Under the pieces are notes generated by a model. That model ran no database searches, had not been told where the DNA came from, and saw only the letters and a program-made list of their open reading frames with translations. This document shows, in pieces, positions 31,952 to 47,604 of a stretch of DNA of 64,000 bases. The position numbers and the translations under genes were made by a program. The stretch comes from Anaeromyxobacteraceae bacterium (GTDB taxonomy: Bacteria > Myxococcota > Myxococcia > Myxococcales > Anaeromyxobacteraceae): contig DASRRJ010000018.1 in the NCBI GenBank assembly GCA_035656915.1, positions 49,816-113,815 of the forward strand. The letters run 5' to 3'. Position 1 is the stretch's first letter. Each line of letters starts with the position of its first letter.

Positions 31952-32887
31952 TCAAGCCGCGGTCGTCGCCTCCGCGAGCGACCGCCGCTCGGCGCGGAGC
32001 GCCTCGAGCGCCTCCTCCTCGCCGCAGGCTGCGAAGCGCACCGCGTCGCCGATCCTCGCCTGGGCCAGCAGGCGGAGGTCGGGGCCGATCACGGTGGCGA
32101 TCTTGGCGTAGCCGCCGGTGGTCTGCGCGTCGGCCATCATCACGATGGGCCGCCCGCTCCCGGGCACCTGGACCGCGCCGGGGCAGAGCGCGTCGGAGAC
32201 GATGTCCGGACCGCGGAGGTGGCGGATGGGCGGCCCCTCCAGCTGGTAGCCCATGCGGTCGTTCCGGTTGCCGACCTCATAGGCGGCGCCGAAGAAGGTG
32301 GCGAGCCCCTCGGAATGGAAGAGGTCGTCCTGCGGGCCAGGCAGCACGCGCAGCGTCACCGCGCCGCCGCAGGGCAGGACGAGGCCCGGGGCGAGCGCGC
32401 GAGGGCGCCGCCGCGCCCAGGGGGTCGGGCCGACCGGCAGGAGGTCGCCCGCGCGGAGCGCGCGCCCGCCGAAGCCGCCGAGCGCGCCGCGGACGTAGGT
32501 GGAGCGGCTCCCGAGCAGCGGCGCGACGTCGATGCCGCCGGCCGGCGAGAGGTAGGTCCGGCAGCCGTCGCGGGCGGCGCCGAAGGCGAGCAGGTCGCCC
32601 GCGAGCACCGGGAAGCCGGAGGCGGGAGCGACCGGCGTGCCGTTGAGCCGGGGCTGCATGTCGGCGCCGCAGACGCCCACGTAGCCGGGCCGCTCGAAGC
32701 GGAAGGTGCCGCCGAGCAGCGTCATCTCCAGCGCCGCCGCGCCGGGCGGGTTGCCGGCGAGCGCGTTCGCGAGCGCGAAGGCGAGCCGGTCCATGGCGCC
32801 CGCCACCGGGAGGCCGGAGGCGCGGTGACCCGGGCGCCCGGCGTCCTGGACCGTGGTGAGCAGGCCCGGCTTCAGCACGGCGATCAC
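31952..32887 (-). CDS. pxpC: 5-oxoprolinase subunit C (PxpC; allophanate hydrolase subunit 2 family)
   Basis: The ORF was trimmed to a GTG start that overlaps the pxpB stop (GTGA). It has the cyclophilin-like AHS2 domain (KPGLLTTVQDAGRPGHRASGLPVAGAMD). Confidence 0.8.
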   Translation of the reverse strand: MIAVLKPGLLTTVQDAGRPGHRASGLPVAGAMDRLAFALANALAGNPPGAAALEMTLLGGTFRFERPGYVGVCGADMQPRLNGTPVAPASGFPVLAGDLLAFGAARDGCRTYLSPAGGIDVAPLLGSRSTYVRGALGGFGGRALRAGDLLPVGPTPWARRRPRALAPGLVLPCGGAVTLRVLPGPQDDLFHSEGLATFFGAAYEVGNRNDRMGYQLEGPPIRHLRGPDIVSDALCPGAVQVPGSGRPIVMMADAQTTGGYAKIATVIGPDLRLLAQARIGDAVRFAACGEEEALEALRAERRSLAEATTAA

Positions 32888-33639
32888 GGCGGCGCCCCCA
32901 CGGCGTCCGGCTCGAGCTCCAGCGCCTGGTCGCCGGCCTCCGCCCGGGCCGCGAGCTTCCGGTACTCGCGCTCGGAGCACGGGCGGAAGCGCACTCGATC
33001 TCCGGCTGCCAGGAGGAACGGCGAGGGGGCGGCCGGGTCGAAGAGGCGCAGCGGCGTCCGGCCGATGAGCCGCCATCCGCCCGGGCTCTCGACGGAGTAG
33101 ATGCCGGTCTGGGCGCCGGCGATCCCGACCGAGCCGGCCGGAATCCGCGCGCGCGGCGAGTCGAGGCGCGGCGCGGCGATCCGCTCCGACATGCCGCCGA
33201 GGTAGGGAAAGCCGGGCGTGAACCCCAGCATGAACACCCGGTAGAGCGCGCCGGCGTGGAGCGCGATCACCTCCTCCTCGGAGATCCCGGCGTGCCGGGC
33301 GACGAACGCGAGGTCGGGACCGAGCTCGCCGCCGTAGGCCACCGGGACGCGGACCACCCGCCCGCCTCCAGGCGCCGCGCCGGCCCGCTCGAGCCCGGCG
33401 AGGAGCGCCTCGACGCTCGCCACCAGCCGCGCCCGCGGGAGCCGCAGCGGATCGAAGAGCAGGAGCAGGGAGCGGTAGGTCGGGACCAGCTCCTCGACGA
33501 GGTCCCCGAGCTCGCGGCGGACCGCGGCGGCGAGCAGGTGGACGCGCGCGTTCACCTGCTCGTCGATGCCGCTCCCGAGCTCCACCGCCAGCCCGCCCTC
33601 GCCGACGGTGAGGAACCTCGCCGGCGCCGGGCTCACCCG
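32884..33639 (-). CDS. pxpB: 5-oxoprolinase subunit B (PxpB; allophanate hydrolase subunit 1 family)
   Basis: The ORF was trimmed to a GTG start (VSPAPARFLTVGEGGLAVELG...). The AHS1 domain motifs RVVRVPVAYGGELGPDL and GFTPGFPYLGG are present. Confidence 0.8.
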   Translation of the reverse strand, partial: RVSPAPARFLTVGEGGLAVELGSGIDEQVNARVHLLAAAVRRELGDLVEELVPTYRSLLLLFDPLRLPRARLVASVEALLAGLERAGAAPGGGRVVRVPVAYGGELGPDLAFVARHAGISEEEVIALHAGALYRVFMLGFTPGFPYLGGMSERIAAPRLDSPRARIPAGSVGIAGAQTGIYSVESPGGWRLIGRTPLRLFDPAAPSPFLLAAGDRVRFRPCSEREYRKLAARAEAGDQALELEPDAVGAPP

Positions 33640-34412
33640 GCCGCTCCGGCCGCGGGGAAGGGCCGGACCGCGATGCCCTCGGCCGCGAGCCGCGCCCGGA
33701 TGGCGCGGATCGCCTCGACGGCGCCGGGCGTGTCGCCGTGCACGCAGACGGTGCCGGGCGACAGGGCCACCTCGCCGCCGTCGAGGGCGGCCACCGTCCC
33801 TTGCCGCACCATGCGCACCACCCGCTCCGCCATCTCCGACGGGTCCTCGAGCACCGCGCCCGGCTGCCCCCGCGGCACCAGGGTGCCGGCGCGGGTGTAG
33901 GCGCGGTCGGCGAAGGCCTCCTCCACGAACGGCTGGCCGGCGCGCCGGGCCGCCTCCACCTGCTCGGAGCGGCTGAGGCAGACGAGCACCAGCCCGGGGT
34001 CGACCGCCCGCACCGCCGCGGCGACGGCGTCGGCGACGCGCGCATCCACCGCCGCCAGGTTGTAGAGCGCGCCGTGCGGCTTCACGTGGCGCAGCGGCAC
34101 GCCCTCGGCGCGACAGAAGGCCCAGAGCGCGCCCACCTGGTAGGTGACGTCGTCGCGGATCTCCTCGGCGGACGCCGACAGCGCGCGCCGCCCGAAGCCC
34201 ACCAGGTCCGGGAAGGAGGGGTGCGCGCCCACGGCGACCCCGTGCCGCTTCGCCAGCCGGACCGTGCGCCGCATGGTGCCGGGGTCGGAGGCGTGGAAGC
34301 CGCACGCCACGTTGGCCGAGGTCACGAGGGGCATGGCCGCCTCGTCGCACCCGAGCGTCCAGGCGCCGAAGCTCTCCCCCATGTCGCAGTTCAGGTCGAC
34401 TTCCATCGGCAT
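33633..34412 (-). CDS. pxpA: 5-oxoprolinase subunit A (PxpA; LamB/YcsF family)
   Basis: MEVDLNCDMGESFG..., VACGFHASDP and HVKPHGALYN are diagnostic LamB/YcsF motifs. 259 aa. Confidence 0.9.
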   Translation of the reverse strand: MPMEVDLNCDMGESFGAWTLGCDEAAMPLVTSANVACGFHASDPGTMRRTVRLAKRHGVAVGAHPSFPDLVGFGRRALSASAEEIRDDVTYQVGALWAFCRAEGVPLRHVKPHGALYNLAAVDARVADAVAAAVRAVDPGLVLVCLSRSEQVEAARRAGQPFVEEAFADRAYTRAGTLVPRGQPGAVLEDPSEMAERVVRMVRQGTVAALDGGEVALSPGTVCVHGDTPGAVEAIRAIRARLAAEGIAVRPFPAAGAAG

Positions 34413-34416
34413 GAGA

Positions 34417-35682
34417 TCAGGCGAGCTCCCGCCCGCGCGTCTCCGGCAGCAGGTAGATCGAGGCGGCGCCGCCGGCGAAGGCCACCGCCAGGAAGGTGAG
34501 CGCGCCGCCGAGCCCGTAGGTCGTCGAGAGCGCGCCGACCACCGTGGGCGCGAGCGCGCTCAGCATGCGGCCGGCGTTGTAGCAGAAGCCCACCGCCGAG
34601 CCGCGCGCCTGGGTGGGGAAGAGCTCGGAGATGAACGCGCCGAAGGCGCTGAAGTAGCCGGAGCCGAAGAAGCCGACCAGCGGGCCGAGCAGCATGAGCG
34701 TGGTGACGTCGCGCGTGCTGCCGAAGAGCCAGACCAGCCCGGCCGAGGCGAGGAGGAAGACGGCGAAGGTGGGGCGGCGGCCGAAGCGGTCGGCGATGAA
34801 GCCGAAGCTCACGTAGCCGAGGAAGGCCCCGATCATCATGGGGATGATCCAGATGGGCGCCTTGGCGATGCCGAGCCCCGCGCCGCCCTTGGCGACCGGC
34901 ATGGCGAGGAACCCCGGCATCCAGGTGAAGAGCCCCCAGTAGGCGAACATCACGAACGCGCTGGTGAGGGTGCTGAGGAGGGTGAAGCGCAGGAGCGGCG
35001 GCCTGAAGATCTGGAAGAAGCCGAAGTCGGCCTTCTGCTCCGACGCCGCGGGCGCGCGCTTCGCGGCGAGCCAGATGGCCGGCTCCTCCACGCGGGTTCG
35101 GATCCAGAGCGTGAAGAGCGCGGGCAGGATGCCGACGAAGAACATGGCCCGCCAGCCGAACGCCGGGAGGATCGTCGCTCCGGCCGCCGCCGCCAGGATG
35201 TAGCCGATGGCCCAGCCGCTCTGCATGATGCCCACCGCCTTGCCGCGGTGCTGCGGCGGCCAGGTCTCGGACACCAGCAGAGCGCCGGAGGCCCACTCGC
35301 CGCCCATGCCCAGGCCGAGCACGGTGCGGGCCAGGGCGAGCTGGGTCAGGTTCTGCGCCAGTCCGGCGAGTCCCGAGCAGACGGAGAAGAGGAGCACCGT
35401 GATCATGAGCGCCTTCTTGCGCCCGATCCGGTCGGCCACCGCGCCGAAGAGGATCCCGCCGAACGAGGAGGCGAAGAGCGTCACCGAGACCATGAAGCCG
35501 GCCGTGGCGGGGGAGTTGCCCCACTCCTTCATGATGGTGGTGAGGCAGAACGAGTAGAGCATCACGTCGAAGGCATCGAGCGCCCAGCCCATCTGGCCAG
35601 CGACGAGGGCGTACCACTGCTTGCGGCTGATCTCCCTGTACCAGGGCGTGCCCGCGGGCGGGGCCAGCACCACTTCGCTCAT
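34417..35682 (-). CDS. MFS transporter (co-operonic with pxpABC)
   Basis: The ORF was trimmed to Met37 (ATG at 35682, CAGGAGA upstream). It has 12 TM helices. An MFS motif A (GAVADRIGRKKAL) is present. It stops 4 nt before the pxpA start. Confidence 0.8.
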   Translation of the reverse strand: MSEVVLAPPAGTPWYREISRKQWYALVAGQMGWALDAFDVMLYSFCLTTIMKEWGNSPATAGFMVSVTLFASSFGGILFGAVADRIGRKKALMITVLLFSVCSGLAGLAQNLTQLALARTVLGLGMGGEWASGALLVSETWPPQHRGKAVGIMQSGWAIGYILAAAAGATILPAFGWRAMFFVGILPALFTLWIRTRVEEPAIWLAAKRAPAASEQKADFGFFQIFRPPLLRFTLLSTLTSAFVMFAYWGLFTWMPGFLAMPVAKGGAGLGIAKAPIWIIPMMIGAFLGYVSFGFIADRFGRRPTFAVFLLASAGLVWLFGSTRDVTTLMLLGPLVGFFGSGYFSAFGAFISELFPTQARGSAVGFCYNAGRMLSALAPTVVGALSTTYGLGGALTFLAVAFAGGAASIYLLPETRGRELA

Positions 35683-35837
35683 CGGCGGTCTCCTGAGGCG
35701 GCGGTCGGGATCGAGTGCGGGGGCTGCGCGGCGTCTTCGCGGGGCGCTCGGGTGGGGTGGCCCCGAATCGGGCGCTACACCATCCGTCACCTTTGCAGGT
35801 TAGATGGAACCTTCCAAGCCCCCCTCTTTGGAGCCCT

Positions 35838-36887
35838 ATGCTCGAGCGCAGCGACGACGGAAGGCCTTTCCGGATCCCACGCTGGAAGCTCACGCCGTGC
35901 TGCGCCCTGGGCGCTCACGCCGCCGCGGGCCCTCGCGCCGCCGTCGCACCGGCGAGCGGCAGCCCGGCCGCCGATCCGCCCGCGGCTCCCGCTGGCAGGC
36001 AGTACCCGCCGCCGCCGCCGGCGGTGAGCCCGGTCGAGGGGCTCATCGACCTGCACGTCCACAGCGCCCCCGACGTCTTCGGCCGGGCCCTCGACGACGA
36101 GGACGCCGCCCGCACCTTCCGCGACCGCGGGCTGGAGGCCTTCGCCATCAAGGGCCACACCACGGTCACCGCCGACCGCGCCTGGCTGGCGCGCCGCCAC
36201 GTGCAGGGGATCGGGGTCTACGGCGGCGTGGTCCTGAACGGCGCCGCGGGCGGCCTCAACCCCGAGGCGGTGGAGTGGATGGCCCGAGTCCAGGGCTCGT
36301 ACGGGCGGCTGGTCTGGTTCCCGACCTTCGACGCCGACCACCACGTGCGGCACTTCCGCAACGGGCCGTCGGGCATTGGCGTCCTCGACGCGGAGGGGCG
36401 GGTGCTCCCGGCGGCGCGGCGCGTGCTCGAGGCCTGCGCCCGCCAGACGCTGGTGGTCTGCACCGGGCACCTGTCGGCGGCCGAGTCGCTCGCCGTGGTG
36501 CGTGCGGCGCGGGAGGTGGGCTGCGAGCGCATCAGCGTCACCCACGCGATGATGGAGGTGCCCGGCTTCACCCTGGAGCAGCTGCGAGAGGCGGCGGGGC
36601 TCGGCGCGAAGCTGGAGCTGGCCGCGCTCGGCCTACTCATGGGCCCCGACGCCCACCTCGCCTGGATGCGCGAGTGGCGGCGCGTCACCCACGCCGACAT
36701 GGCGGCGGCGATCCGCGCCATCGGCGCGCGGCACTTCCACCTCTCCACCGACCTCGGGCAGACGGGCAACCCCGTCCCCGCCGACGGCTACGCGCTGCTC
36801 GTCGAGGGGCTCCTGGCCGAGGGGATCACGCGCGACGAGATCCGGGTGATGGGGCGCGAGGTGCCGGGGGCGCTCCTGCTCGGCTGA
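35838..36887 (+). CDS. Metal-dependent TIM-barrel hydrolase-like protein (amidohydrolase-related), N-terminal signal-like region
   Basis: The ORF was trimmed to Met42. It has IDLHVHSAPD (HxH), ...CTGHLS, ISVTHAMME and HLSTDLGQ histidine motifs that suggest an amidohydrolase-like metal site. The family is not pinned down. Confidence 0.5.
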   Translation: MLERSDDGRPFRIPRWKLTPCCALGAHAAAGPRAAVAPASGSPAADPPAAPAGRQYPPPPPAVSPVEGLIDLHVHSAPDVFGRALDDEDAARTFRDRGLEAFAIKGHTTVTADRAWLARRHVQGIGVYGGVVLNGAAGGLNPEAVEWMARVQGSYGRLVWFPTFDADHHVRHFRNGPSGIGVLDAEGRVLPAARRVLEACARQTLVVCTGHLSAAESLAVVRAAREVGCERISVTHAMMEVPGFTLEQLREAAGLGAKLELAALGLLMGPDAHLAWMREWRRVTHADMAAAIRAIGARHFHLSTDLGQTGNPVPADGYALLVEGLLAEGITRDEIRVMGREVPGALLLG

Positions 36888-37079
36888 CGGGCTGATCGCC
36901 GGCTGGCCGCCGTGGCTGGCCCGCCTTCGCCGGCCGCCCGCGTGGCCGCTTGCGCGCTGGTGATCGAGGGGACGCTCCGCCTCCCCGGCTCCCCGCTGGG
37001 TTGCGGCGCTCCGGTGGGGTTTCCATCCTCCTTGCAAGCGGGCCGTGGGGAAACCGGTCCGGGCGGGGGACGGGGGCCG

Positions 37080-37406
37080 ATGCTCGAAGCGAGGTTCGAG
37101 GAGAGGAGGGGTGCACTTCTGGTGACCCCGCTGGCGGCGTTGGACGCCGAGGCCGCGCCGGAGCTGCGGCGGGTCGTCGGGGAACGCGCCAGCGGGAGGT
37201 CGCTGGTCGTCGTCTCCCTGGCACAGGTCCGGGAGGTGGACTCCTCCGGGCTGGCGGGGCTCCTGGCGGTGCTGAAGCGGATGGCGCCCGGCGGCGAGCT
37301 GCGGCTCGCGGCCGTCCCACCTCGCACGCGCGACATCCTGATGGCGACCCATCTCGACGAGGTGTTTCCGCAATTCGAGGATGCGGCCGCCGCCCTGCGG
37401 CGATGA
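37080..37406 (+). CDS. STAS-domain anti-sigma-factor antagonist (SpoIIAA/RsbV-like)
   Basis: 108 aa. VVVSLAQVREVDSSGLAGLLAVLKR carries the conserved phosphorylatable Ser in a DSSG context. Its stop overlaps the GT2 start as ATGA. Confidence 0.8.
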   Translation: MLEARFEERRGALLVTPLAALDAEAAPELRRVVGERASGRSLVVVSLAQVREVDSSGLAGLLAVLKRMAPGGELRLAAVPPRTRDILMATHLDEVFPQFEDAAAALRR

Positions 37407-39250
37407 TCCCGACCGCTCCAGAGACCCGCGAGCGGTGGTACTTCTCGCGCTACGAGGACCGGCTCCCCGCGGAGCCGCTCCGGGTCAGCCCGGCGCGCGA
37501 CTTCGCTTTCCAGGCCCTGGCGGTGCTCGCGACGGCCCTCGGGGTGCACTACCTCGTCTGGCGCTGGGGGTGGTCGCTGAACCCGGACGCCCTGGCCTTC
37601 TCCGTGGCGGTCGCCGTCGCCGAGACGCTGGCCTTCCTGGGCGCGACCCTGTTCTTCCTGTCGGTGTGGAGGATCCAGGATCCGGTGGTCCGGCCGCCGC
37701 CCCGCACGGCGAACGAGATCCGCGAGACGCCGCTCCCGATCGACCGACCCATCCGCGTGGACGTGCTCATCGCCACCTTCAACGAGCCGGTGGAGCTGGT
37801 GCGACTGTCGGTGCAGGACGCCAAGCGGCTCGGCTACCCCCACCCGCTCACGCTCCGGATCCACGTCCTCGACGACGGGCGGCGCCCGGCGATGGCCCGC
37901 ATGGCGCGGGAGGAGGGGGTCGGCTACCTGACGCGCTCCGGAAACCAGGGGTTCAAGGCGGGGAACCTGCGGAACGGCCTCGAGCAGACCGACGGTGACC
38001 TGGTCGTGATCTGCGACGCGGACACCCGCCCGCTGCCCGGCCTGCTCGCCGACACGCTCGGCCACTTCCGCGACCCGAGCGTCGCCTGGGTGCAGACGCC
38101 GCAGTGGTTCTACGACGTCGATCCGGGCACCCCGCTGCCGGAGTGGCTGGCGCGCGCGGCGCGGCTGGGGCGGCCGGGGAGGCTGATCGGGCGGATGCTC
38201 GAGGCGGTGATCGGGCCGGTGGCGGTGGGCGCCGATCCGCTCGCCGCCGATCCGGCCGCCTTCTACGAGATCGTCCAGCGGGGCCGGAACTGGTGCAACG
38301 CCTCCTTCTGCTGCGGTGCCGGGAGCATCCACCGGCGCGAGGCGGTGATGGAGGCCGCGCTCAAGGACTTCGGGCGCCGGGTCACCGAGTCGGTGCGCCC
38401 CTGGACGGCGAAGGTGCGCGACCCGGAGCTCCGCGAGGCGCTGAGGACGGCCTTGGTCGCCCAGGCAGCGCGCCACGCGGAGCTCACCCCCTACCGCTTC
38501 CACGTCTCCGAGGACATCTACACGAGCATCGCGCTCCACGCCGATCCCGAGCGCCGCTGGCGCTCCGTCTACCACCCGCGGGCGCTCACCCGCATGCTCT
38601 CGCCCCAGGATCTCCCTGCCTGGACGGTGCAGCGCTTCAAGTACGCCGCCGGGACGCTCGACATCGGCTGGCGCGACAACCCGCTGCGGCTCCCGGGGCT
38701 GACTCCCTGGCAGAAGCTCATGTACGGGGCCACCATCTACGCCTACCTGGCGCCGCTCTGGACCATCCCGCTGCTGTTCTCGCCGCTCGCCTACTTCTTC
38801 ATCGGGGTGACGCCGGTGCGCGCCTTCGACGCCGCCTTCTTCGGAAACCTCATCCCCTTCCTGCTGGCGAGCCGGCTCGCGTTCGCCGTCCGCGCCTGGG
38901 GCGTGCCCACCTGGCGCGCCGAGCAGTTCCACCTCGCCTCGTGCTGGCTGAACCTGCGGGCGCTGGGGCACGTGCTGGCCGGCCGCCCGCTGCGCTTCGA
39001 GGTCACGCCCAAATCGGGCGCGCGCCGGCGCTCGCTCTCGCTCGTGGCGCCGCACCTGGCGTTCATGGCCGCGGCGGTGGTCGGGATCGCCTACCGCGGC
39101 GCGCGGCTGGCCGCGGACTCGGGCCCGCCCCACGCGACCGCCTTCGCCTCCAACGTCTTCTGGGCCGCGCACACCAGCCTGTGCTTCCTGCCCTTCATCC
39201 TCGCCGCGCTGGCGGTCTCGCTCCGGCGCGAGGGGGGAGGAGCGCGATGA
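37403..39250 (+). CDS. Family-2 processive glycosyltransferase, cellulose-synthase (BcsA/CrdS)-like, membrane-embedded
   Basis: 615 aa. Two N-terminal TM helices are followed by GT-A motifs (DVLIATFNEP, HVLDDG, ICDADT = D, D, D) and a Q(R)xRW-like QRFKYAAG. There are 6 C-terminal TM helices. No PilZ domain is present. Confidence 0.8.
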   Translation: MIPTAPETRERWYFSRYEDRLPAEPLRVSPARDFAFQALAVLATALGVHYLVWRWGWSLNPDALAFSVAVAVAETLAFLGATLFFLSVWRIQDPVVRPPPRTANEIRETPLPIDRPIRVDVLIATFNEPVELVRLSVQDAKRLGYPHPLTLRIHVLDDGRRPAMARMAREEGVGYLTRSGNQGFKAGNLRNGLEQTDGDLVVICDADTRPLPGLLADTLGHFRDPSVAWVQTPQWFYDVDPGTPLPEWLARAARLGRPGRLIGRMLEAVIGPVAVGADPLAADPAAFYEIVQRGRNWCNASFCCGAGSIHRREAVMEAALKDFGRRVTESVRPWTAKVRDPELREALRTALVAQAARHAELTPYRFHVSEDIYTSIALHADPERRWRSVYHPRALTRMLSPQDLPAWTVQRFKYAAGTLDIGWRDNPLRLPGLTPWQKLMYGATIYAYLAPLWTIPLLFSPLAYFFIGVTPVRAFDAAFFGNLIPFLLASRLAFAVRAWGVPTWRAEQFHLASCWLNLRALGHVLAGRPLRFEVTPKSGARRRSLSLVAPHLAFMAAAVVGIAYRGARLAADSGPPHATAFASNVFWAAHTSLCFLPFILAALAVSLRREGGGAR

Positions 39251-40590
39251 GCTTCCTGCGCGGGCTGCTGACGGCGCGCTCCCACCTCGCCTTCCTGGTG
39301 GGGCTGACCGCCGCCGTGGCGGTGGTCCGGATCACCTCGCGGCTGGGCCGCGCCGGGGAGGCGACGACGCTCCGCGAGCTGGTGGCGCCGCTCCCGCGGT
39401 CGCTGCCGCTGCGGGCTCCGGGGCGCGTCGGCGCCCGCGAGCGATCGCTGGCGCGGGCCGCCTTCGCCTACCTGGAGCGCAACACCGATGAGGCCACCGG
39501 GCTGGCGCGCTCGGTGGCCGGGTATCCCTCCACCACCATGTGGGAGGTGGGCTCGCAGCTCATGGCACTGCTCGCCGCGGAGGATCTCGACCTGGTCTCG
39601 CGCGACGGGGCGCGGCGCCGCGCCGCCCGGGTGGTCTCCGCGCTCGCCTCGCTGCCGCTCTGCGACGGGAGGCTGCCGAACAAGGCCTACGACACGCGGA
39701 CCCTCGCGATGGTGGATTACGGCAACCGGCCCGCCCCCGAGGGGATCGGCTGGTCCGCGCTCGATCTGGGCCGCGTCCTCTCCGCGCTCGGCCTGGTGAT
39801 GCGCCGCTACCCTGAGCTCGCGCCTCAGATCGAGCGGGCGACCGCGAGCTGGGACCTGCAGGCGCTGAGCGACGGTGACGTGCTCCGGGGCGCCACGCGC
39901 CGGCCCACCGGCGAGCTGGAGCGCCATCAGGAGGGGCGGCTGGGGTACGAGCAGTACGCCGCGCGGGCGCTCCTGCCCTGGGGGGTCGCCGCCTCGAGCG
40001 CGCTCGACTACCGCTCCCACCTCGCCGCGGCCGAGATCTACCGAATGGCCGTGCCGGTGGACGACCGCCGGCCGGAGGATCACGGCGGGACGCACGCCGC
40101 GGTCCTCTCCGAGCCGTGGATCCTCGCCGGGATCGAGCAGGGGTTCGACGCGGTCAGCGAGGCGCTGGCGCGGCGGGTGCTCGAGGTGCAGGCGCGCCGG
40201 GCCGACGGGACCGGGCGGATCACCGCCTTCTCGGAGGACGCCATCGACCGGCCGCCCGGCTTCGCCTACTCGGCGATCCTGAACGGCGGTCGCTCCTGGA
40301 CCGCCTTCGCGGCCGACGGCTCCCCCGCGCCCGCCACCTTTTCGACCAAGGCCGCGCTCGGCTGGGCCGCGCTCTTCGGCGGCCCCTACTCCGACCGGCT
40401 GCGGGAGGCCGCGCTGGCGCTGGTGGCGCCGGGCGCCGGCGCCTGGGCCGGGCGCTACGACGCCGGCGGCGAGGTGAACCGGGTGCTCTCGCTCAACACC
40501 AACGCGGTGATCCTGGAGGCGCTCTCGTACCAGCTGCGAGGTCCGTTCTCGCGTCGCCCGGTCCGGCTGCCGCGGCAGGTGGCGCGATGA
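39247..40590 (+). CDS. Conserved large-domain protein (DUF3131-like by recollection), paralog A, N-terminal TM anchor
   Basis: Its start overlaps the GT2 stop as ATGA. 447 aa. It shares the motifs GYPSTT/SVW(E/D)(V/L)GS, LPNKAYDT, G(I/W)SALDLGR, EGRLGYEQYAA and NTNAVILE with the downstream paralog. The DUF3131 label is from memory. Confidence 0.6.
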   Translation: MSFLRGLLTARSHLAFLVGLTAAVAVVRITSRLGRAGEATTLRELVAPLPRSLPLRAPGRVGARERSLARAAFAYLERNTDEATGLARSVAGYPSTTMWEVGSQLMALLAAEDLDLVSRDGARRRAARVVSALASLPLCDGRLPNKAYDTRTLAMVDYGNRPAPEGIGWSALDLGRVLSALGLVMRRYPELAPQIERATASWDLQALSDGDVLRGATRRPTGELERHQEGRLGYEQYAARALLPWGVAASSALDYRSHLAAAEIYRMAVPVDDRRPEDHGGTHAAVLSEPWILAGIEQGFDAVSEALARRVLEVQARRADGTGRITAFSEDAIDRPPGFAYSAILNGGRSWTAFAADGSPAPATFSTKAALGWAALFGGPYSDRLREAALALVAPGAGAWAGRYDAGGEVNRVLSLNTNAVILEALSYQLRGPFSRRPVRLPRQVAR

Positions 40591-42569
40591 GGGCGCTGGG
40601 CCTGTCCGCGCTCCTCCTGGCCGCGCGGGTGGCCGGCGCCCAGCAGCAGTGCCCCGCGCCGGCCCCCCCGCCCTCGCCCGAGGCGGCCTCCGTCGCGCGG
40701 GTGGCCTGGACCTACTTCGAGCGCAACTATCGCCCGGAGACCGGCATGGTGGACTCGGTCGAGGGCTACCCGAGCACCTCGGTGTGGGACCTCGGCTCCT
40801 CGATCCTGGCAACGGTCGCGGCGCGCCGGCTCGGCGTGCTCTCCGAGCCGGACTTCGACCGGCGCGTGCGAGCGCTGCTGGGGACGCTCTCGCGGCTGCC
40901 GCTCTTCGAGGGCGAGCTCCCGAACAAGGCCTACGACACCACCACCGGAGGGATGACCGACTACGCGAACAGGCCCTCGCCCGGCGGGATCGGCGTGTCG
41001 GCGCTCGACCTCGGGCGGCTCGCGGCCGCGCTGCGCGCGCTCGCCTGCGCGGAGCCGGCGCTCCGGCCGGAGGTGGAGCGGGTGCTGGCGCGCTGGCGCT
41101 GGTGCCGGCTGCTCGGCGACGGAGAGCTGCACGGGATGCTGCGGGGCGGCGCGGGCGCCGTGCAGGTGGTGCAGGAGGGACGGCTCGGCTACGAGCAGTA
41201 CGCGGCCGAGGGGCTGGCCGGGCTCGGGCTCGACGTCGCTCGCGCGCGCCGCTACGACCGCCACTCCGCCGAGGAGGTGATCCTGGGCGTGCCGGTGCGG
41301 CGCGACGCGCGCGACGCCCGCCGCTTCGGTGCGGTGGACGCGCTCGTGACCGACCCCTGGGTCCTCTCCGCGCTCGAGTACGGCCCCGACGCGGCCCGCG
41401 CGCCGCTGCTGCGGCGGCTCTTCGAGGTCCAGAAGCGGCGCTGGCAGCGCACCGGCGTGGTCACCGCCGCGAGCGAGGACCACGTCGACCGGGCGCCCTG
41501 GTTCGTCTACGACGCCGTCTGGGCGGACGGCGGCGCCTGGAAGGCGGTGACGCCGGAGGGGCGCGAGGTCCCCGAGCTGCGCGGGCTCTCGGTGAAGGCC
41601 GCCTTCGCCCTGGCGGCGCTCTTCCCGATCGACCCCTATGCGCAGGTCCTGCTGCAGGCGGCCGGCCGCGCCTACGATCCGGGGCGGGGGTTCTTCGCGG
41701 GGGTCTACGAGCGCGGCGGCCTGAACCGCTCGGTGAACGCCAACACCAACGCGGTCATCCTGGAGGTGCTGCTCTTCCAGCGCTCCGGCCCCTTGCTGGG
41801 CTGTGGGAGCTGCGCGCAGGAGCCGGCCGGGGCGGCGCTGCGCCTTCCGGCGGGCGCGCGGAGCTGCCCAGCGGTCGCCCGGACGAGCGCGCCGGGCGGC
41901 GGCGCCGGGCTAGAGAGCGCAGCCGGGCTCGGGCCCAAGCCGCCGCTCCTCGCGCCGGTGAGCACCGGCACCCGCTTCCTGCGCCTCGACGGCACCTTCT
42001 TCCTGGGCTACCGCGGCCTCGACGGTCCGACCGCCGGCGGGGTCGCGACCGCCTGGCTCGGCCGCGCCATCTTCCTGCGGCTCGGAGGCGAGGGCACCCC
42101 CAACTCCACCTACGGCCACTCCCGGTTCCTGTGGGGCTTCGGCTACGACGACTGGCGGGACAACACCTTCTTCCTCCACGTGGACAACTGGGGGCCCATC
42201 CGGCTCGAGGACAGCCTCTCGCGCTCGGCCGAGGTGAACGCGGGCTACCGCCTCCCGACCCTCTGCGCGAAGAGCTGGCTCTGCGCCTCCCCGGTCGCGC
42301 AGGTCACCACGCCGTTCGTGGGCGGGCCGTACCTGAGCGCTCGCGTGAACGTCACCTTCTGGAAGGACTGGTTCCTGATGGGCGGGCTCGGCTGGACCGT
42401 GCCCGGCGTGCTGCCCGGTCCGCTCGGCACGCCGAGCTGGCGGGTCATGTACGGGCTCGGCCGCTGGAGCTGGAAGCCCGGGAGCGTCTACGTCACCTAT
42501 TACGACTGGGGGCCCGATTCGCACAGCGGCAACGGGATCCTCGCCATCGGCATCAACTGGGCGTTCTAG
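40587..42569 (+). CDS. Conserved large-domain protein (DUF3131-like), paralog B, fused to a C-terminal putative outer-membrane beta-barrel domain
   Basis: ATGA overlap again. A signal peptide is present (MRALGLSALLLAARVAGAQQ). The region 30-430 is paralogous to the preceding gene. The C-terminal roughly 200 aa are rich in alternating aromatic/Gly beta-strand patterns and end in ...GINWAF, a terminal Phe typical of OM beta-barrels. Confidence 0.6.
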   Translation: MRALGLSALLLAARVAGAQQQCPAPAPPPSPEAASVARVAWTYFERNYRPETGMVDSVEGYPSTSVWDLGSSILATVAARRLGVLSEPDFDRRVRALLGTLSRLPLFEGELPNKAYDTTTGGMTDYANRPSPGGIGVSALDLGRLAAALRALACAEPALRPEVERVLARWRWCRLLGDGELHGMLRGGAGAVQVVQEGRLGYEQYAAEGLAGLGLDVARARRYDRHSAEEVILGVPVRRDARDARRFGAVDALVTDPWVLSALEYGPDAARAPLLRRLFEVQKRRWQRTGVVTAASEDHVDRAPWFVYDAVWADGGAWKAVTPEGREVPELRGLSVKAAFALAALFPIDPYAQVLLQAAGRAYDPGRGFFAGVYERGGLNRSVNANTNAVILEVLLFQRSGPLLGCGSCAQEPAGAALRLPAGARSCPAVARTSAPGGGAGLESAAGLGPKPPLLAPVSTGTRFLRLDGTFFLGYRGLDGPTAGGVATAWLGRAIFLRLGGEGTPNSTYGHSRFLWGFGYDDWRDNTFFLHVDNWGPIRLEDSLSRSAEVNAGYRLPTLCAKSWLCASPVAQVTTPFVGGPYLSARVNVTFWKDWFLMGGLGWTVPGVLPGPLGTPSWRVMYGLGRWSWKPGSVYVTYYDWGPDSHSGNGILAIGINWAF

Positions 42570-42594
42570 AGGTCGAGAGGGGAGGGGCGCGAGA

Positions 42595-43497
42595 ATGAGA
42601 GGGCGTGGCGGGTTCCTGCTGGCGGCGTCGGCGGCGCTGGCGATGGGCTGCGGCCTCATGCCGCCGGAGAAGCCCGGGACGACCCAGCAGTCGACGCCGA
42701 CGCCTCCGCCGGTGCCCGGGCCCACCCAGACGCCGTCGCCCGCTCCGTCCTCGGGGCTGCCGTCCCCGCTGCCCGGCTACCACCTGCTCTGGCACGACGA
42801 GTTCGACGGCGCGGGCCTCGACCCGACGAAGTGGACCGCCTCGACCGGCCCTCGACGCGACGCGACGCTCACCACCGACGCGATCTCGGTCCACGACGGG
42901 CTGCTCACCGTCACCACCTACACCGACGGCGGGAAGCACTACACCGGCTTCCTCACCACCGGCAGCGCCTTCCAGCCGACCTTCGGGTACTTCGAGGCGC
43001 GGATCCGCTTCAACGACGCGCCCGGGGAGTGGTGCGCCTTCTGGCTCCTCTCGCCGACGAACGGGGTCCCGCTCGGAGATCCGGCCACGGCGGGCGCCGA
43101 GGTGGACATCGTCGAGCACCGTGTCACCGACCCGAAGGGCTGGGACGCGCTGCGCGACCTCGTCAAGGAGGAGGTGCACTGGGACGGGTACGGCGCCGAC
43201 CGGAAGGACTCGCCGGAGCACACCGTCCCGCTCGCCGGCGGCGGTCCCGTGCAAGGCGCCTGGCACACCTACTCGGTGCTCTGGACGGACGCGGGCTACT
43301 GGTTCTACGCGGACGGATCGCTGCTCTGGAACTACGACCAGGGGCTCTCGAAGCGGGGCGAGCAGGTGCTGCTCACCTGCGAGGTCGAGGACGGCACCTG
43401 GGCGGGCTACGTCCCGGCCGGCGGCTACGGCTCGCTGGCCAGCAGCGCCACCCACATGGACGTGGACTGGGTGCGGGTCTGGGCGCCGGGGCCGTAG
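42595..43497 (+). CDS. Glycoside hydrolase family 16 lipoprotein (endo-beta-1,3/1,3-1,4-glucanase-like)
   Basis: GGGGAGGGG SD. The signal peptide has a lipobox (LAMGCG) and a Pro/Thr-rich linker. The catalytic GH16 motif EVDIVEH (ExDxxE) and a jelly-roll-type sequence are present. Confidence 0.8.
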   Translation: MRGRGGFLLAASAALAMGCGLMPPEKPGTTQQSTPTPPPVPGPTQTPSPAPSSGLPSPLPGYHLLWHDEFDGAGLDPTKWTASTGPRRDATLTTDAISVHDGLLTVTTYTDGGKHYTGFLTTGSAFQPTFGYFEARIRFNDAPGEWCAFWLLSPTNGVPLGDPATAGAEVDIVEHRVTDPKGWDALRDLVKEEVHWDGYGADRKDSPEHTVPLAGGGPVQGAWHTYSVLWTDAGYWFYADGSLLWNYDQGLSKRGEQVLLTCEVEDGTWAGYVPAGGYGSLASSATHMDVDWVRVWAPGP

Positions 43498-46360
43498 TCC
43501 TCGGAGCCGGCCGCCTACTCCTCCGGCGCGCCAGCGCCGCGGCCGCGAGGAGCCCTGCCAGCGAGAGCGCGTCCCCTCCACCGCTCGAGGCGCAGCCCCC
43601 CCGACCGCCGGCAGCGGCGGAGGCCGGCGTGGGCGATCCTCCAGCCGTCGAGGGCGCGGTGGCCCCCCGGATGACGCCCGAGAGCATGAAGTCGCGCGAC
43701 GAGCTCCCCACGAACACCGGGGTCTCGCACGCCGGCGATGTCCAGGCGTGCGCCGCCGGGTCCCAGCGCTCGAACGCCTCCGGCGCCAGCGCGACGGTCA
43801 CGCGCCGGCTGGCGCCCGGATCGAGCGCCACCTTGGAGAACCCCGCCAGCCGGTGCGGCACCGGGTCGGCCTCCCCGGGGCAGGGTCCCACGTAGACCTG
43901 CGCCACCTCGGCGCCAGCGCGGCCGCCGGTGTTGGCGAGCGTGAACGAGACCTGGGCCGTGCGGCGGCCGGCGGCGTCCACCGTCGCCGGCGCGACCTCG
44001 AGGCCGGAGTAGCCGAAGGTGGTGTAGGAGAGGCCGTAGCCGAAGGGGAAGAGCGGCGCGATCCCCTTCGCGTCGTACCAGCGGTATCCCATGAGCAGCC
44101 CCTCCGACCAGGCGATCACCGGGCCGATCTGGTCCTGGGTGGGCGCGGGCTGCGCGCCGACCGGCGTCTGGTCGAGCGAGCGCGGGAAGGTGAGCGGGAG
44201 CTTGCCCGAGGGGTTCACGTCGCCGAAGAGCACCCGGGCGACGACGTCCCCCTGCCGCTGCCCCGGGTACCAGGCCTGCACCACCGCCGAGACGGCGGGG
44301 AGCCAGGGCATGCTGGTGCCCTGACCGGTGGTGAGCACCACGACCGTGCGCGGGTTGGCCGCCGCCACCGCGGCGATGAGCGCGTCCTGCTCGGACGGGA
44401 GCGAGAGGTCCAGCCGGTCGCGCTCCTCGGTCCCGTAATCCCGCGCGACCACCACCGCCACGTCAGAGGCGGCCGCCAGCGCCACCGCCTCGCGCGTGGT
44501 GGAGAGCACCGTGCCGGCCGGCATCTGCCACCCCAGCTTCAGATCCCCGCCGCGATCGGTCGCCACCCCGATGCTGGGGGCGTCGGCGACGTAGTCCACC
44601 CGAAGGTCGTGCTTCGTGCCGGCGGCGAGCTGCACGGTGGCGGACCTGGAGTCGAGCTCGTGCGAGCCGGAGTGGTCGATGACGAGCGCGCCGTCGAGCC
44701 ACACCCAGCCCTGGCCGCGGTCGGTGAGCGTGAAGGTGTAGGTGCCGGTCGCCGGCGCGGTGAGGGTGCCGTTCCAGCGGGCCGAGATCTTCTGCAGGGC
44801 GAAGCTCTCCGGGAGCTGCGGCTCGGAGGAGGCGTCGACGCTCGGGTAGTCGAAGAAGCCGAGCGAGACCGCCGCCTCGTGGTCCACCCGGATCACCTCC
44901 GCCGGGCCGGCGAAGCTCGGGTTGAGCCAGTACTGCGCCCGCAGGCCGCGGGTCCCGTCGTCGAACCCCTCCGGCGTGAGCACCGAGGAGGGGATGGCCG
45001 GCGGTCCCGGCAGGAGGTGCGCCGGCGAGACCGGGTCGCCACCGGGCGCGAACCTCACGTCCACCCCGGGTCCGGCGCGCTGGCGCAGGCCGTCGAGCGG
45101 AGTCACCGAGGAGGTCGGCTCCACCCGCGCCGCGCCGCCGCCCTGGGCCGCGGCGGTGTCGGCGTCGGCGCCGATGACCGCGATCGAGCGCAGCGCGCCG
45201 GCGGAGAGCGGGAGGAGCCCGTCGCGGTTCTGGAGCAGCACCACCCCCTGCTCGGCGATTTGCTCCGAGCGGTCGGAGTCGTCCGCCTCGGCGAGCGGCC
45301 CCGGTTGCACCGGCTGGTCCATGAGGCCGAGGCGGAACATGGAGCGCAGGATCCGGCGCGCCTTGTCGTCCACCACGTCGCGCGCCACCTCCCCGCGCTG
45401 GACCGCGCCGAGGAGCGAGTGGCCGAAATACTTCTCGAAGGCCAGCTCCTGGTCGAGGCCGGCCGTGGCCGCCAGCACCGTGCCGTGGATCGAGGCCCAG
45501 TCGCTGAGGACGTAGCCCTGGAAGCCCAGCTCGCCCTTGAGGACGTCGGTGAGGAGGTGGCGGTCCTCGCAGGCGAACGCGCCGTTCACGCGGTTGAAGC
45601 CGCACATCACGCTCCCCACCTGGGCGTCGGCGACCGCCGCCTGGTAGGGCCGGAGGTAGAGCTCTCGCAGGGCGCGCTCGTCCAGCTCGGCGTCCACCGT
45701 GAAGCGGTCGGTCTCCTGGCCGTAGGCGACGTAGTGCTTGGCGTCGGCGATCACCGGGTGCTTCTGGATGGCCTGGATGAACGGGGCGGCGAGGCGCGCC
45801 GCCAGGAGCGGGTCCTCGCCGAAGCCCTCGAAGGTGCGGCCGGCGAGCGGGTCGCGCGCGAGGTCCAGGGTGGGCCCGAGCAGCACGTTGTGCCCGGTGA
45901 GGAAGGCCTCGGCACCGAGCACGTCCCCCTGCTCGGAGGCCGCGGTGGGGTCGAAGCTCGCGGCGAGCGCGATGGGCGCGGGGAGCTGGGTGGCCCGACC
46001 GCCGTTCACCCGCTGGTAGGGGATGCGGATGCCCGCCGGGCCGTCGGTCATGGTCAGGGCCGGGATGCCGAGCCGGGCGATGGGGGCGTTGTAGTAGCCG
46101 TAGAGCAGGCAGCGCTCGCCCGTCGCGAGATCGATCTCCTCCTCGAGCGCCATGGCCCCGAGCAGCGCCTCGGCGCGCGCATCCGGCGGCTGGCTGGAGT
46201 CGGTCCAGGGCCGGCTCGCGGGCGGCCCCTGCTCCGAGCCGAGCGTCGGGCCAGGGCAGTACGGCGGTGGCGCGGCGCCGGCGTGGAGCGCGACCGAGGC
46301 GATCACTGCCGCGAGCAGCGCGAGCGCCCCTCGGTCTGCCTGAAACCCGGCGTGGAGCAT
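43373..46360 (-). CDS. Glycoside hydrolase family 3 beta-glucosidase with inserted PA14 domain and MYXO-CTERM-like C-terminal sorting region
   Basis: The ORF was trimmed to Met91 (signal peptide MLHAGFQADRGALALLAAVIASVALHA). The GH3 nucleophile motif GFQGYVLSDWASIHG is present. The PA14 region reads YWLNPSFAGPAEV...TGTYTFTLTDRGQGWVWLDGALVIDHSG. The C-terminal ...GGCASSGGGDALSLAGLLAAAALARRRSRRP resembles MYXO-CTERM. The ORF runs roughly 43 aa beyond it and overlaps the GH16 3' end by 125 nt. Confidence 0.8.
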   Translation of the reverse strand: MLHAGFQADRGALALLAAVIASVALHAGAAPPPYCPGPTLGSEQGPPASRPWTDSSQPPDARAEALLGAMALEEEIDLATGERCLLYGYYNAPIARLGIPALTMTDGPAGIRIPYQRVNGGRATQLPAPIALAASFDPTAASEQGDVLGAEAFLTGHNVLLGPTLDLARDPLAGRTFEGFGEDPLLAARLAAPFIQAIQKHPVIADAKHYVAYGQETDRFTVDAELDERALRELYLRPYQAAVADAQVGSVMCGFNRVNGAFACEDRHLLTDVLKGELGFQGYVLSDWASIHGTVLAATAGLDQELAFEKYFGHSLLGAVQRGEVARDVVDDKARRILRSMFRLGLMDQPVQPGPLAEADDSDRSEQIAEQGVVLLQNRDGLLPLSAGALRSIAVIGADADTAAAQGGGAARVEPTSSVTPLDGLRQRAGPGVDVRFAPGGDPVSPAHLLPGPPAIPSSVLTPEGFDDGTRGLRAQYWLNPSFAGPAEVIRVDHEAAVSLGFFDYPSVDASSEPQLPESFALQKISARWNGTLTAPATGTYTFTLTDRGQGWVWLDGALVIDHSGSHELDSRSATVQLAAGTKHDLRVDYVADAPSIGVATDRGGDLKLGWQMPAGTVLSTTREAVALAAASDVAVVVARDYGTEERDRLDLSLPSEQDALIAAVAAANPRTVVVLTTGQGTSMPWLPAVSAVVQAWYPGQRQGDVVARVLFGDVNPSGKLPLTFPRSLDQTPVGAQPAPTQDQIGPVIAWSEGLLMGYRWYDAKGIAPLFPFGYGLSYTTFGYSGLEVAPATVDAAGRRTAQVSFTLANTGGRAGAEVAQVYVGPCPGEADPVPHRLAGFSKVALDPGASRRVTVALAPEAFERWDPAAHAWTSPACETPVFVGSSSRDFMLSGVIRGATAPSTAGGSPTPASAAAGGRGGCASSGGGDALSLAGLLAAAALARRRSRRPAPRTTAPAPRPAPSPRPCGWRCWPASRSRRPGRSPPRCRPRPRR

Positions 46361-46584
46361 CCGATGGCCGTGCGCCGTGCGGCGACCCCCCTGCGAGCAA
46401 GGGTAGGGCGAGAGGGACGGCAGGCAACGAGCGGGCGGCCGCCGCTCGAGCCCGCGCCCGATGGCCGCGCCGCGACCACGCGCAGGCTCGCGCGCACGAG
46501 AGAGCCCGTCCGGGCGTGGTGCTCGCTCGGCCCGGTGGCTTAAATGGCGGAGATCTTGGAGCGCGGCTGGATCTGGAGGCAAGC

Positions 46585-47604
46585 ATGGCCGACACCATGA
46601 AGGCGTACGAGGTTCCGAAGCCCGGCTCACCCTTCACCCTGGTCGAGCGGCCGGTGCCTCGACCGGCCCCGGCCCAGGTGCGCATCGCCGTCGAGGCCTG
46701 CGGCATCTGCCACTCGGACGCGTACGTGAAGGGTGGGCAGTTCCCCGGGCTGACCCTCCCGCGCGTGCCGGGGCACGAGGTGGTCGGCCGCGTCGACGCG
46801 GTGGGGGACGGCGTGACCACCTGGCGGGTCGGGCAGCGCGTCGGGGTGGGCTGGCACGGCGGCCACTGCTTCGTCTGCGAGGCTTGTCGCGCCGGCGACT
46901 TCATCGAGTGCGCGCGCGGCCTCATCTGCGGCTTCAGCTACGACGGCGGCTACGCCGAGTACCTGATCGCTCCCCAGGAGGCGCTCGCCGCGGTCCCCGA
47001 CGCGCTCGACGCGGTGGCCGCCGCGCCGCTGCTCTGTGCCGGGGTCACCACCTTCAACGCGCTGCGCAACAGCGGCGCGCGCGGCGGCGAGCTGGTGGCG
47101 GTCCAGGGCATCGGAGGGCTCGGGCACCTCGGCATCCAGTACGCCCGCAAGCTCGGCTTCCACACCGTGGCGATCTCGCGCGGCGCCGACAAGCGCGCCC
47201 TGGCCCTCGAGCTCGGCGCGCACGAGTACGTCGACCAGGAGGCCGGCGACGCAGCGGCGGCGCTGCAGAAGCTCGGCGGAGCCCGCGCGATCCTCGCCAC
47301 CGCGCCCAACTCGCAGCTGATGTCGAAGCTGGTGGACGGGCTCGGCCGCAACGGCACGCTGCTCGTTGTGGGGGCGTCGCCGGATCCGATCCAGGTCTCG
47401 CCCTTCCAGCTCATCGGCCCGCGCCGGCGGCTGCAGGGGTGGCCGAGCGGCACGGCCAAGGACTCCGAGGAGGCGCTCGCCTTCAGCGCGCTCAACGGGG
47501 TGGCGTCGCGGAACGAGGTCTTCCCCCTGGAGCGCTGCAACGAGGCCTTCGAGCGGATGACGAGCAACAAGGCGCGCTTCCGGGTGGTGCTGAAGGTGCG
47601 CTGA
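46585..47604 (+). CDS. Zinc-dependent alcohol dehydrogenase (MDR superfamily)
   Basis: GGAGG SD. It has the catalytic Zn (GICHSD...GHE) and structural Zn (C..C..C...C: CFVCEACRAGDFIEC) motifs and a Rossmann GIGGLGH motif. Confidence 0.9.
   Translation: MADTMKAYEVPKPGSPFTLVERPVPRPAPAQVRIAVEACGICHSDAYVKGGQFPGLTLPRVPGHEVVGRVDAVGDGVTTWRVGQRVGVGWHGGHCFVCEACRAGDFIECARGLICGFSYDGGYAEYLIAPQEALAAVPDALDAVAAAPLLCAGVTTFNALRNSGARGGELVAVQGIGGLGHLGIQYARKLGFHTVAISRGADKRALALELGAHEYVDQEAGDAAAALQKLGGARAILATAPNSQLMSKLVDGLGRNGTLLVVGASPDPIQVSPFQLIGPRRRLQGWPSGTAKDSEEALAFSALNGVASRNEVFPLERCNEAFERMTSNKARFRVVLKVR

Follow-up and report, generated by a model that had tools for sequence, protein, structure and literature searches.

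The DNA studied is a 64-kb window (~75% G+C) of a contig from an Anaeromyxobacteraceae bacterium, and all coordinates refer to this whole window. It carries a cluster of six genes, in which a membrane glycosyltransferase of family 2 (GT2) is encoded together with a STAS protein, two paralogous proteins with the domain of unknown function DUF3131 (paralogues A and B), and two glycoside hydrolases (GH16 and GH3). An earlier note, made from the letters alone, had described the set as a candidate system for the synthesis, export, and remodeling of a β-glucan. The genes are as follows.

37080-37406, + strand: STAS gene, 108 aa; its stop overlaps the GT2 start (ATGA)
37403-39250, + strand: GT2 gene, 615 aa
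39247-40590, + strand: DUF3131-A gene (paralogue A), 447 aa
40587-42569, + strand: DUF3131-B gene (paralogue B), 660 aa
42595-43497, + strand: GH16 gene, 300 aa
46360-43373, - strand: GH3 gene, 995 aa; convergent with GH16

The five genes on the + strand (STAS, GT2, DUF3131-A, DUF3131-B, and GH16; 37080-43497) translated in the frames given by the earlier note. The 4-nt ATGA overlaps that it had reported were found at the STAS/GT2, GT2/DUF3131-A, and DUF3131-A/DUF3131-B junctions, GH16 started 25 nt past DUF3131-B as described, and the family assignments (STAS, GT2, two DUF3131, GH16, and GH3 with PA14) were all correct by Pfam. In Anaeromyxobacter paludicola, the whole six-gene block was kept, including the 4-nt overlaps, with protein identities of 72–84% (tblastn), and it sat in a different upstream gene context. 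Because the same block with its overlaps recurs despite other upstream genes, the six genes can be treated as the unit, and their arrangement is not due to chance.

The Pfam analysis showed that both paralogues are DUF3131 proteins, as had been suspected, with essentially full-length matches to PF11329 (gathering cut-off, 20.3 bits). Paralogue A matched profile positions 2–367 of 367 (6.5e-118, 394 bits), with its DUF3131 domain at residues 68–432, and paralogue B matched positions 2–366 of 367 (7.3e-128, 427 bits). The two proteins shared 45% identity over 373 residues (E 2e-73), and the motifs LPNKAYDT, GYPST.xW..GS, and EGRLGYEQYAA were confirmed in both. DUF3131-B was a single (α/α)6 barrel, nearest to members of the β-1,2-glucanase clan. 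The earlier suspicion of a fold like that of GH144, GH162, or GH189 was thus sustained, and the cyclization domain of Cgs, the cyclic β-1,2-glucan synthase, was the single best structural match. The AlphaFold model of paralogue B (mean predicted local distance difference test [pLDDT] score, 87) was divided into the following regions.

40692-41786, + strand: six-hairpin (α/α)6 catalytic domain of paralogue B, residues 36–400
41886-41972, + strand: low-confidence Cys-rich linker of paralogue B, residues 434–462, pLDDT below 50
41979-42566, + strand: outer-membrane β-barrel of paralogue B, residues 465–660, 12 strands, terminal signal G.NW.F

The relationship to Cgs was also detectable in sequence. 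Comparison of DUF3131 with the Cgs middle domain gave E 0.09 from a single sequence and 2.7e-4 from a 43-sequence profile. In hhalign, DUF3131 and five Cgs middle domains were aligned with 95.7% probability and E 1e-8, over only the first four helices (118 columns); nothing usable came from an alignment forced to greater length or from profile–profile alignment of the C-terminal halves by themselves. The Pfam DUF3131 model matched residues 1040–1135 of S. meliloti NdvB, barely over threshold, with the remainder of that domain matching PF10091 (Glycoamylase); this match may be the reason why a Brucella gene, which we take to be cgs, is annotated as DUF3131. A permissive Pfam scan revealed no weak match to PF10091. 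DUF3131 is thus predicted to share ancestry with the N-terminal portion of the middle domain of Cgs. The hallmarks of GH189 are a long α5 helix, extra helices between α4 and α5, and a domain of ~600 residues (PMC12102758). The GH189-specific α4–α5 insertion was absent from DUF3131, whose domain of ~365 residues leaves no room for it. Since the Cgs profile alignment covers the first four helices, DUF3131 is best described as related to the ring-closing domain of Cgs, but more compact. With the other members of the SGL clan (GH144, GH162, GH192, GH193, and GH194; PMC12102758), DUF3131 had no detectable sequence similarity; phmmer and profile searches gave no matches to PDB entries of these five families, and DUF3131 stands outside the groups described. 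As a separate observation, Cgs-like genes of ~8.5 kb, annotated as "glucoamylase family protein", were seen on plasmids of Rahnella, Phenylobacterium, Azospirillum, and Methylocystis, and plasmid records of Escherichia (14), Klebsiella (12), and Pantoea (17) were matched by a 100-residue Cgs fragment as well.

Twelve acidic positions were kept in at least 90% of 74 DUF3131 domains, covering all paralogue types (D68, D141, E197, E203, D240, D256, E264, E297, D298, D301, E375, and E393 in the numbering of paralogue B). Because of this conservation, both DUF3131 copies look catalytically competent and are predicted to be active. The invariant residues also included F306, Y308, and Y351, beside E197, E203, E264, and E297. 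Within the clan, E239 (the general acid), Y367, and F286 of XcSGL are conserved residues (PMC12102758), and E1356 and E1442 of TiCGS form the retaining Glu/Glu pair of GH189 (PMC10834661). An unreliable alternative alignment (probability 0.2%) placed E297 of paralogue B on the TiCGS nucleophile and D256 on the acid/base residue.

Paralogue A carried an N-terminal signal-anchor (a hydrophobic segment at residues about 9–33), in agreement with the claim that one paralogue is membrane anchored, and the anchor motif M..R..L.ARS.L was kept from Pantoea to Anaeromyxobacter. Paralogue B was arranged as a cleavable-looking signal peptide, the DUF3131 domain, a Cys-rich disordered linker whose cysteines were kept in the alignment consensus, and a C-terminal barrel. 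N-terminal hydrophobic segments were present in almost all paralogues of other loci, one of them resembling a lipoprotein. Because of these signal peptides and membrane anchors, the DUF3131 enzymes are predicted to act outside the cytoplasm.

The C-terminal part of paralogue B had been suspected to be an outer-membrane barrel ending in Phe. The sequence does end in ...INWAF, and the region was neither disordered nor helical: modeling of the full protein and of the isolated domain (pLDDT 86.6; predicted template modeling score, 0.79) each predicted 12 antiparallel strands. The barrel is closed, has an even number of strands, and ends in a C-terminal aromatic β-signal whose form ...G.NW.F was conserved, all of which are features of outer-membrane barrels. 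The DUF3131–barrel fusion was conserved in Anaeromyxobacter species. The barrel family was small, with 135 representative clusters among 1.84 billion proteins, and the barrel was always C-terminal. Ten members with other N-termini showed no Pfam domain there. In several barrel members (P0130, P0137, P0138, P0145, and L009:11707-13146), the Pfam-less N-terminus resembled, by eye, the middle of DUF3131 (…LD..L..L…P.LR..VER.L.W.YC…) and was followed by a Pro-rich linker. These other N-termini look by eye like DUF3131 remnants, and the idea that the barrel is a generic anchor module on unrelated passengers was rejected on this ground. The barrel appears to be tied to the DUF3131 system and to be retained even where the enzyme domain is reduced.

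The order of signal peptide, enzyme, linker, and C-terminal 12-stranded barrel would also fit an autotransporter-type surface enzyme, in which the barrel only displays DUF3131 and the enzyme acts on the bacterium's own, prey, or environmental extracellular glucan. However, type Va autotransporters have an α-helical linker in the pore, whereas no pore-spanning helix before strand 1 was predicted in the AlphaFold models of paralogue B, and its linker is disordered. The barrel, at ~196 residues, is of the size of KdgM or NanC and had no match to a Pfam autotransporter family. Unlike both the KdgM/NanC porins and the type Va β-domains, to which it showed no sequence or Pfam similarity, it is fused to or encoded beside DUF3131, and other family members retain it without a complete enzyme (the remnants being those judged by eye). 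Weighing these points, we consider the display of a surface enzyme to be improbable.

The GT2 protein matched Pfam GT2 families, and its closest PDB structures were BcsA proteins (8e-31, over part of the protein), in an alignment that takes in the gating loop (FxVTxK, present as FEVTPK). Pfam detected no PilZ domain in the protein, which stops just past the last hydrophobic helices, so that the description of a BcsA-type synthase without PilZ was supported. The eight transmembrane segments claimed for it were not recovered; a Kyte–Doolittle scan gave six strongly hydrophobic segments in a 2 + 4 arrangement, with two N-terminal hydrophobic helices and four or more C-terminal ones. The catalytic motifs were DDG157, DAD205, SED369 (VSED), and QRFKY410, the last standing where processive GT2s have QxxRW. 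The NCBIfam CelA model scored 201 bits against a cut-off of 699, which is below equivalog level, and no OpgH model was among the NCBIfam matches. VSED, QRFKY, and FCCGA did not vary among the DUF3131-linked GT2s from Myxococcota, Noviherbaspirillum, and Pantoea (48–80% identical to the window GT2); the cyanobacterial partner GT2s kept the canonical TED and QRLRW. The orthologues had ~600–620 residues and only generic names.

Related loci were gathered by a single-sequence scan of genome contigs (six loci), exact-protein look-ups, and plasmid searches. The results showed that GT2 adjoined DUF3131 genes in all 11 related loci of at least 19 kb, which spanned five bacterial lineages (Myxococcota, Beta-, Gamma- and Alphaproteobacteria-type plasmids, and cyanobacteria); the neighborhood of the pair is thus conserved wherever enough DNA was available. 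Each locus carried two to five DUF3131 copies, and OpgC was encoded in 7 of the 11. No barrel or other obvious porin was found in most of the proteobacterial and cyanobacterial loci. Loci of differing gene content are given below.

Noviherbaspirillum humi locus: response regulator, Hpt, response-regulator/SpoIIE phosphatase, GH16, STAS, anti-sigma kinase, GT2, three DUF3131, OpgC, GH16
Pantoea stewartii pDSJ10 locus: kinase, SpoIIE phosphatase, GT2, three DUF3131, GH2
L010, a cyanobacteria-like metagenome contig: tandem DUF3131 fusions (four DUF3131 genes), OpgC, GH9, GT2 with a kinase insertion
L018, a Nostoc flagelliforme plasmid: tandem DUF3131 fusions, GT2, STAS, SpoIIE phosphatase, anti-sigma factor

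A conserved hypothetical gene was also seen amid the partner-switch genes of Noviherbaspirillum (L008:6104-7108) and Pantoea (L017:6106-7005), the Noviherbaspirillum copy being without a Pfam match, and the record of one locus (L012, region 11691-12297) is labeled pSymB yet is 3.7 Mb long. The enterobacterial version was also present on plasmids of Salmonella and Pantoea stewartii; the Pantoea version had no match in complete Escherichia coli genomes. In Klebsiella pneumoniae, the same gene set is listed as an accessory block, as annotated genes, without study (PMC12974863), and a similar gene list that does not mention DUF3131 is given for a Salmonella genomic island (PMC3401170). In Shewanella, the DUF3131 genes make up a module that is co-expressed in salt shock (PMC8371737), which is a weak hint of an osmotic role.

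These data bear on whether the cluster secretes a high-molecular-weight exopolysaccharide, as in a cellulose, curdlan, or mixed-linkage model, with a long linear β-glucan as the product, DUF3131 as a BcsZ-like quality control, and the barrel as a BcsC-like porin. The BcsA–BcsB–BcsZ–BcsC system shares with the cluster the GT2 fold, the membrane layout, the FxVTxK loop, a periplasmic six-hairpin enzyme, and an outer-membrane barrel. BcsA is the closest relative of the GT2, a single linear chain would pass a 12-stranded pore more easily than a ring, and several loci include linked genes for GH16 or GH9 endoglucanases. In contrast to Bcs, the cluster has no PilZ and no BcsB, QRFKY replaces QxxRW, and the barrel is 12-stranded and without a TPR region. 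Furthermore, two to five DUF3131 copies per locus with conserved acidic residues exceed what trimming needs, OpgC, whose known role is the modification of periplasmic oligoglucans, is often encoded in linkage, and most proteobacterial and cyanobacterial loci lack an obvious exit. Exopolysaccharide secretion is therefore regarded as unlikely, although it deserves to be kept in view.

The two glycoside hydrolases bear on the glucan linkage. GH16 was identified by Pfam (8.3e-14) with the ExDxxE catalytic motif present as EVDIVE, and it is a probable lipoprotein, with LAMGC followed by a Pro/Thr-rich linker, in line with the lipoprotein endoglucanase proposed before. Its closest solved enzymes were β-1,3-glucanases and laminarinases, matched weakly (about 1e-10). 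The GH3 protein had a signal peptide, the Pfam GH3 domain with a PA14 insertion, and an Fn3-like domain; with closest PDB β-glucosidases down to 3.6e-128, it is a generic β-glucosidase. It had been called MYXO-CTERM anchored, and a tag-like GGC...LARRRSRR was present; the tag was not terminal, however, since 45 more residues follow. These Pro/Arg-rich residues at the end of the open reading frame (43373-43510, - strand; …GGCASSGGGDALSLAGLLAAAALARRRSRR) lie beyond the tag-like segment and account for a 125-nt overlap with the 3′ end of the convergent GH16 gene. The A. paludicola GH3 orthologue terminates right after RRRR, and the extension could stem from the loss of a stop codon or from misassembly. 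In other loci, GH9, GH2, or GH15 stood in place of GH16 and GH3. The DUF3131 fold and the link to OpgC, which also adjoins ndvB in S. meliloti, point towards a β-1,2 linkage, and GH16 points towards β-1,3.

The STAS protein was of the anti-sigma-antagonist type (Pfam STAS, 1.3e-12; TIGR00377, 4.4e-12, below cut-off), and its phosphorylation motif was kept as DSSG. STAS, kinase, and phosphatase genes recurred in the related loci, where the kinase and phosphatase genes adjoin the orthologous clusters. On the cyanobacteria-like contig (L010:15163-17589), a cellulose-synthase-type GT2 had a HATPase_c_2 anti-sigma-kinase domain inserted at residues 211–335. In Anabaena, a phosphorylated STAS domain was reported in 2026 to control a polysaccharide glycosyltransferase directly (PMC13555669): All4160 acts with HenR/Alr3423, and a phosphorylatable STAS domain, a SpoIIE-type phosphatase, and an anti-sigma-type kinase control the glycosyltransferase post-translationally. 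The same STAS/phosphatase/kinase logic is described for SypA/SypE of Vibrio fischeri (PMC4517449). Compared with All4160 and with SypA/SypE, the cluster has a separate, translationally coupled STAS protein, its target would be a processive membrane GT2, and the kinase and phosphatase are missing from the window. Because of the recurrent kinase and phosphatase genes, the kinase insertion in a partner GT2, and the Anabaena precedent, direct post-translational control of the synthase by STAS would most likely replace PilZ and cyclic di-GMP.

The flanking genes are unrelated to the cluster. Upstream, 31952-36887 holds genes typical of 5-oxoprolinase (carboxyltransferase CT_A_B domain and LamB/YcsF), a major facilitator superfamily (MFS) transporter gene on the - strand, and a DUF6282 gene whose end lies 192 nt upstream of STAS. 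The CT_A_B, LamB/YcsF, MFS, and DUF6282 genes were all absent upstream of the A. paludicola block. Genes for a zinc alcohol dehydrogenase and a BNR protein lie downstream. An Rfam scan of the whole 64,000-nt window gave no family at gathering score, and a scan of 36000-47000 for sigma-70-like promoters and intrinsic terminators found no sites.

With glycoside hydrolases or their relatives making up three of the six genes, and with characterized DUF3131 relatives that are mostly degradative β-1,2-glucanases, the cluster might instead be a catabolic locus for environmental β-glucans with GT2 as an unrelated neighbor. However, translational coupling joins GT2 to DUF3131 in this cluster, and the two stand side by side in every related locus of sufficient length, across phyla. 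Nor does the conserved block encode a system for sugar uptake; the MFS gene upstream lies on the other strand and is missing in A. paludicola. OpgC and the regulation of the synthase also point to biosynthesis. The catabolic explanation was rejected on the GT2 coupling and the lack of an uptake system, and we hold it to be very improbable.

In the earlier note, the functions of Cgs/NdvB were thought to be split across the genes of this locus. The homology of DUF3131 to the Cgs middle domain upholds a part of that idea: the N-terminal helices are alike in sequence, the Pfam DUF3131 model matches NdvB, and OpgC is a neighbor in both cases. The other part does not stand. Cgs is a single cytoplasmic polypeptide (~2,800 residues) that includes a glycosyltransferase domain of its own and a GH94 phosphorylase, and its product exits via an ABC transporter, whereas in the cluster each six-hairpin domain belongs to a protein of its own that is secreted or anchored, the synthase is BcsA-like, and no counterpart of the GH94 length-control domain was found by Pfam. 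A literal split Cgs was therefore rejected for its different compartment, its different synthase, and the missing GH94. The nearer functional analogue appears to be OpgH with periplasmic OpgG/OpgD. The osmoregulated periplasmic glucan (OPG) system shares the logic of a membrane GT2 that exports a glucan and of periplasmic enzymes that cut or transglycosylate it, and OpgC in many related loci and the osmotic hint fit in as well. OpgD of Xanthomonas cyclizes glucan, and the OpgG/OpgD family (GH186) has no sequence homology to the GH144/GH162/GH189 group (PMC11842490). The cluster differs from OPG in that its GT2 is not OpgH, six-hairpin DUF3131 proteins stand instead of GH186, regulation would be by a STAS partner switch, and Myxococcota have an outer-membrane barrel.

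Taken together, the cluster probably encodes a biosynthetic pathway for an envelope β-glucan with a periplasmic and/or released product, built on the logic of OpgH and OpgG/OpgD from different families. In this pathway, as homology would have it, the BcsA-like GT2 would polymerize glucose from UDP-glucose at the inner membrane and thread the chain into the periplasm. There, DUF3131-A would be tethered to the inner membrane beside the synthase and DUF3131-B to the outer membrane by its own barrel, and both, given their fold and location signals, would cut and size the nascent chain and possibly transglycosylate or cyclize it. At the outer membrane, the barrel may serve for passage or for anchoring, and the lipoprotein GH16 and a surface or periplasmic GH3 may trim or recycle the glucan. 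The coupled STAS protein would set synthase activity, with its phosphorylation controlled, in related clusters, by the adjacent kinase and response-regulator/SpoIIE phosphatase, as gene linkage, the domain fusion, and precedent suggest.

A more specific version is put forward tentatively. DUF3131 may be a new family of secreted stand-alone glycoside hydrolases or transglycosylases, relatives of the Cgs ring-closing domain, that together with QRFKY-type GT2s make an undescribed periplasmic or released β-glucan, possibly cyclic, in Myxococcota, Enterobacterales (Klebsiella, Salmonella, Pantoea, and others), Betaproteobacteria, and cyanobacteria. STAS phosphorylation, not cyclic di-GMP, would be the switch, and in Myxococcota the barrel would be a new, dedicated 12-stranded exit channel.

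Several points weigh against the main interpretation, that of an envelope β-glucan pathway. The catalytic residues of GH189 and GH144 could not be mapped onto DUF3131, as the alignment is reliable over the first ~118 columns only, and a pore formed by 12 strands offers little width for a cyclic glucan. The linkage may not be β-1,2, and may depend on the lineage, because the linked GH16 is laminarinase-like and other loci carry GH9, GH2, or GH15. OpgC, the anti-sigma kinase, and the response-regulator/SpoIIE phosphatase were absent from the 64-kb window by tblastn, so that the evidence for the OPG-like features and for the phospho-switch comes from other genomes; the kinase and phosphatase of the STAS protein may be encoded elsewhere in the genome. 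Related Myxococcota-type STAS proteins (L003:7641-7958 and L002:7659-7982) carry DESG, which is phosphomimetic, or DASG, which is non-phosphorylatable, and no kinase or phosphatase gene was found in the flanks examined of these two loci.

All parts of the cluster belong to known superfamilies, and DUF3131 is a large, widespread, and uncharacterized family. A full-text literature search for DUF3131 returned four papers, of which none was functional, and searches around GH189, OpgC, and partner switching returned no description of such a system. The view that this is not a described gene set was therefore borne out: no functional description was found in the literature, with the enterobacterial version appearing only as annotated gene lists. 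Envelope and cyclic β-glucans are factors in virulence, symbiosis, and osmoadaptation, and to our knowledge the routes to them are few (Cgs, OpgGH, NdvB/C, Bcs, Crd, and Bgs). If the interpretation is true, a further route would be added with three novelties: the signature of the synthase, a six-hairpin family that is structurally nearest to the Cgs cyclase, and a phospho-STAS switch on a processive synthase. Small, separable components make the hypothesis open to direct testing. Since the enterobacterial version is found in a K. pneumoniae accessory block, a Salmonella island, and plasmids of Salmonella and Pantoea stewartii, a defined product could matter for association with hosts or plants.

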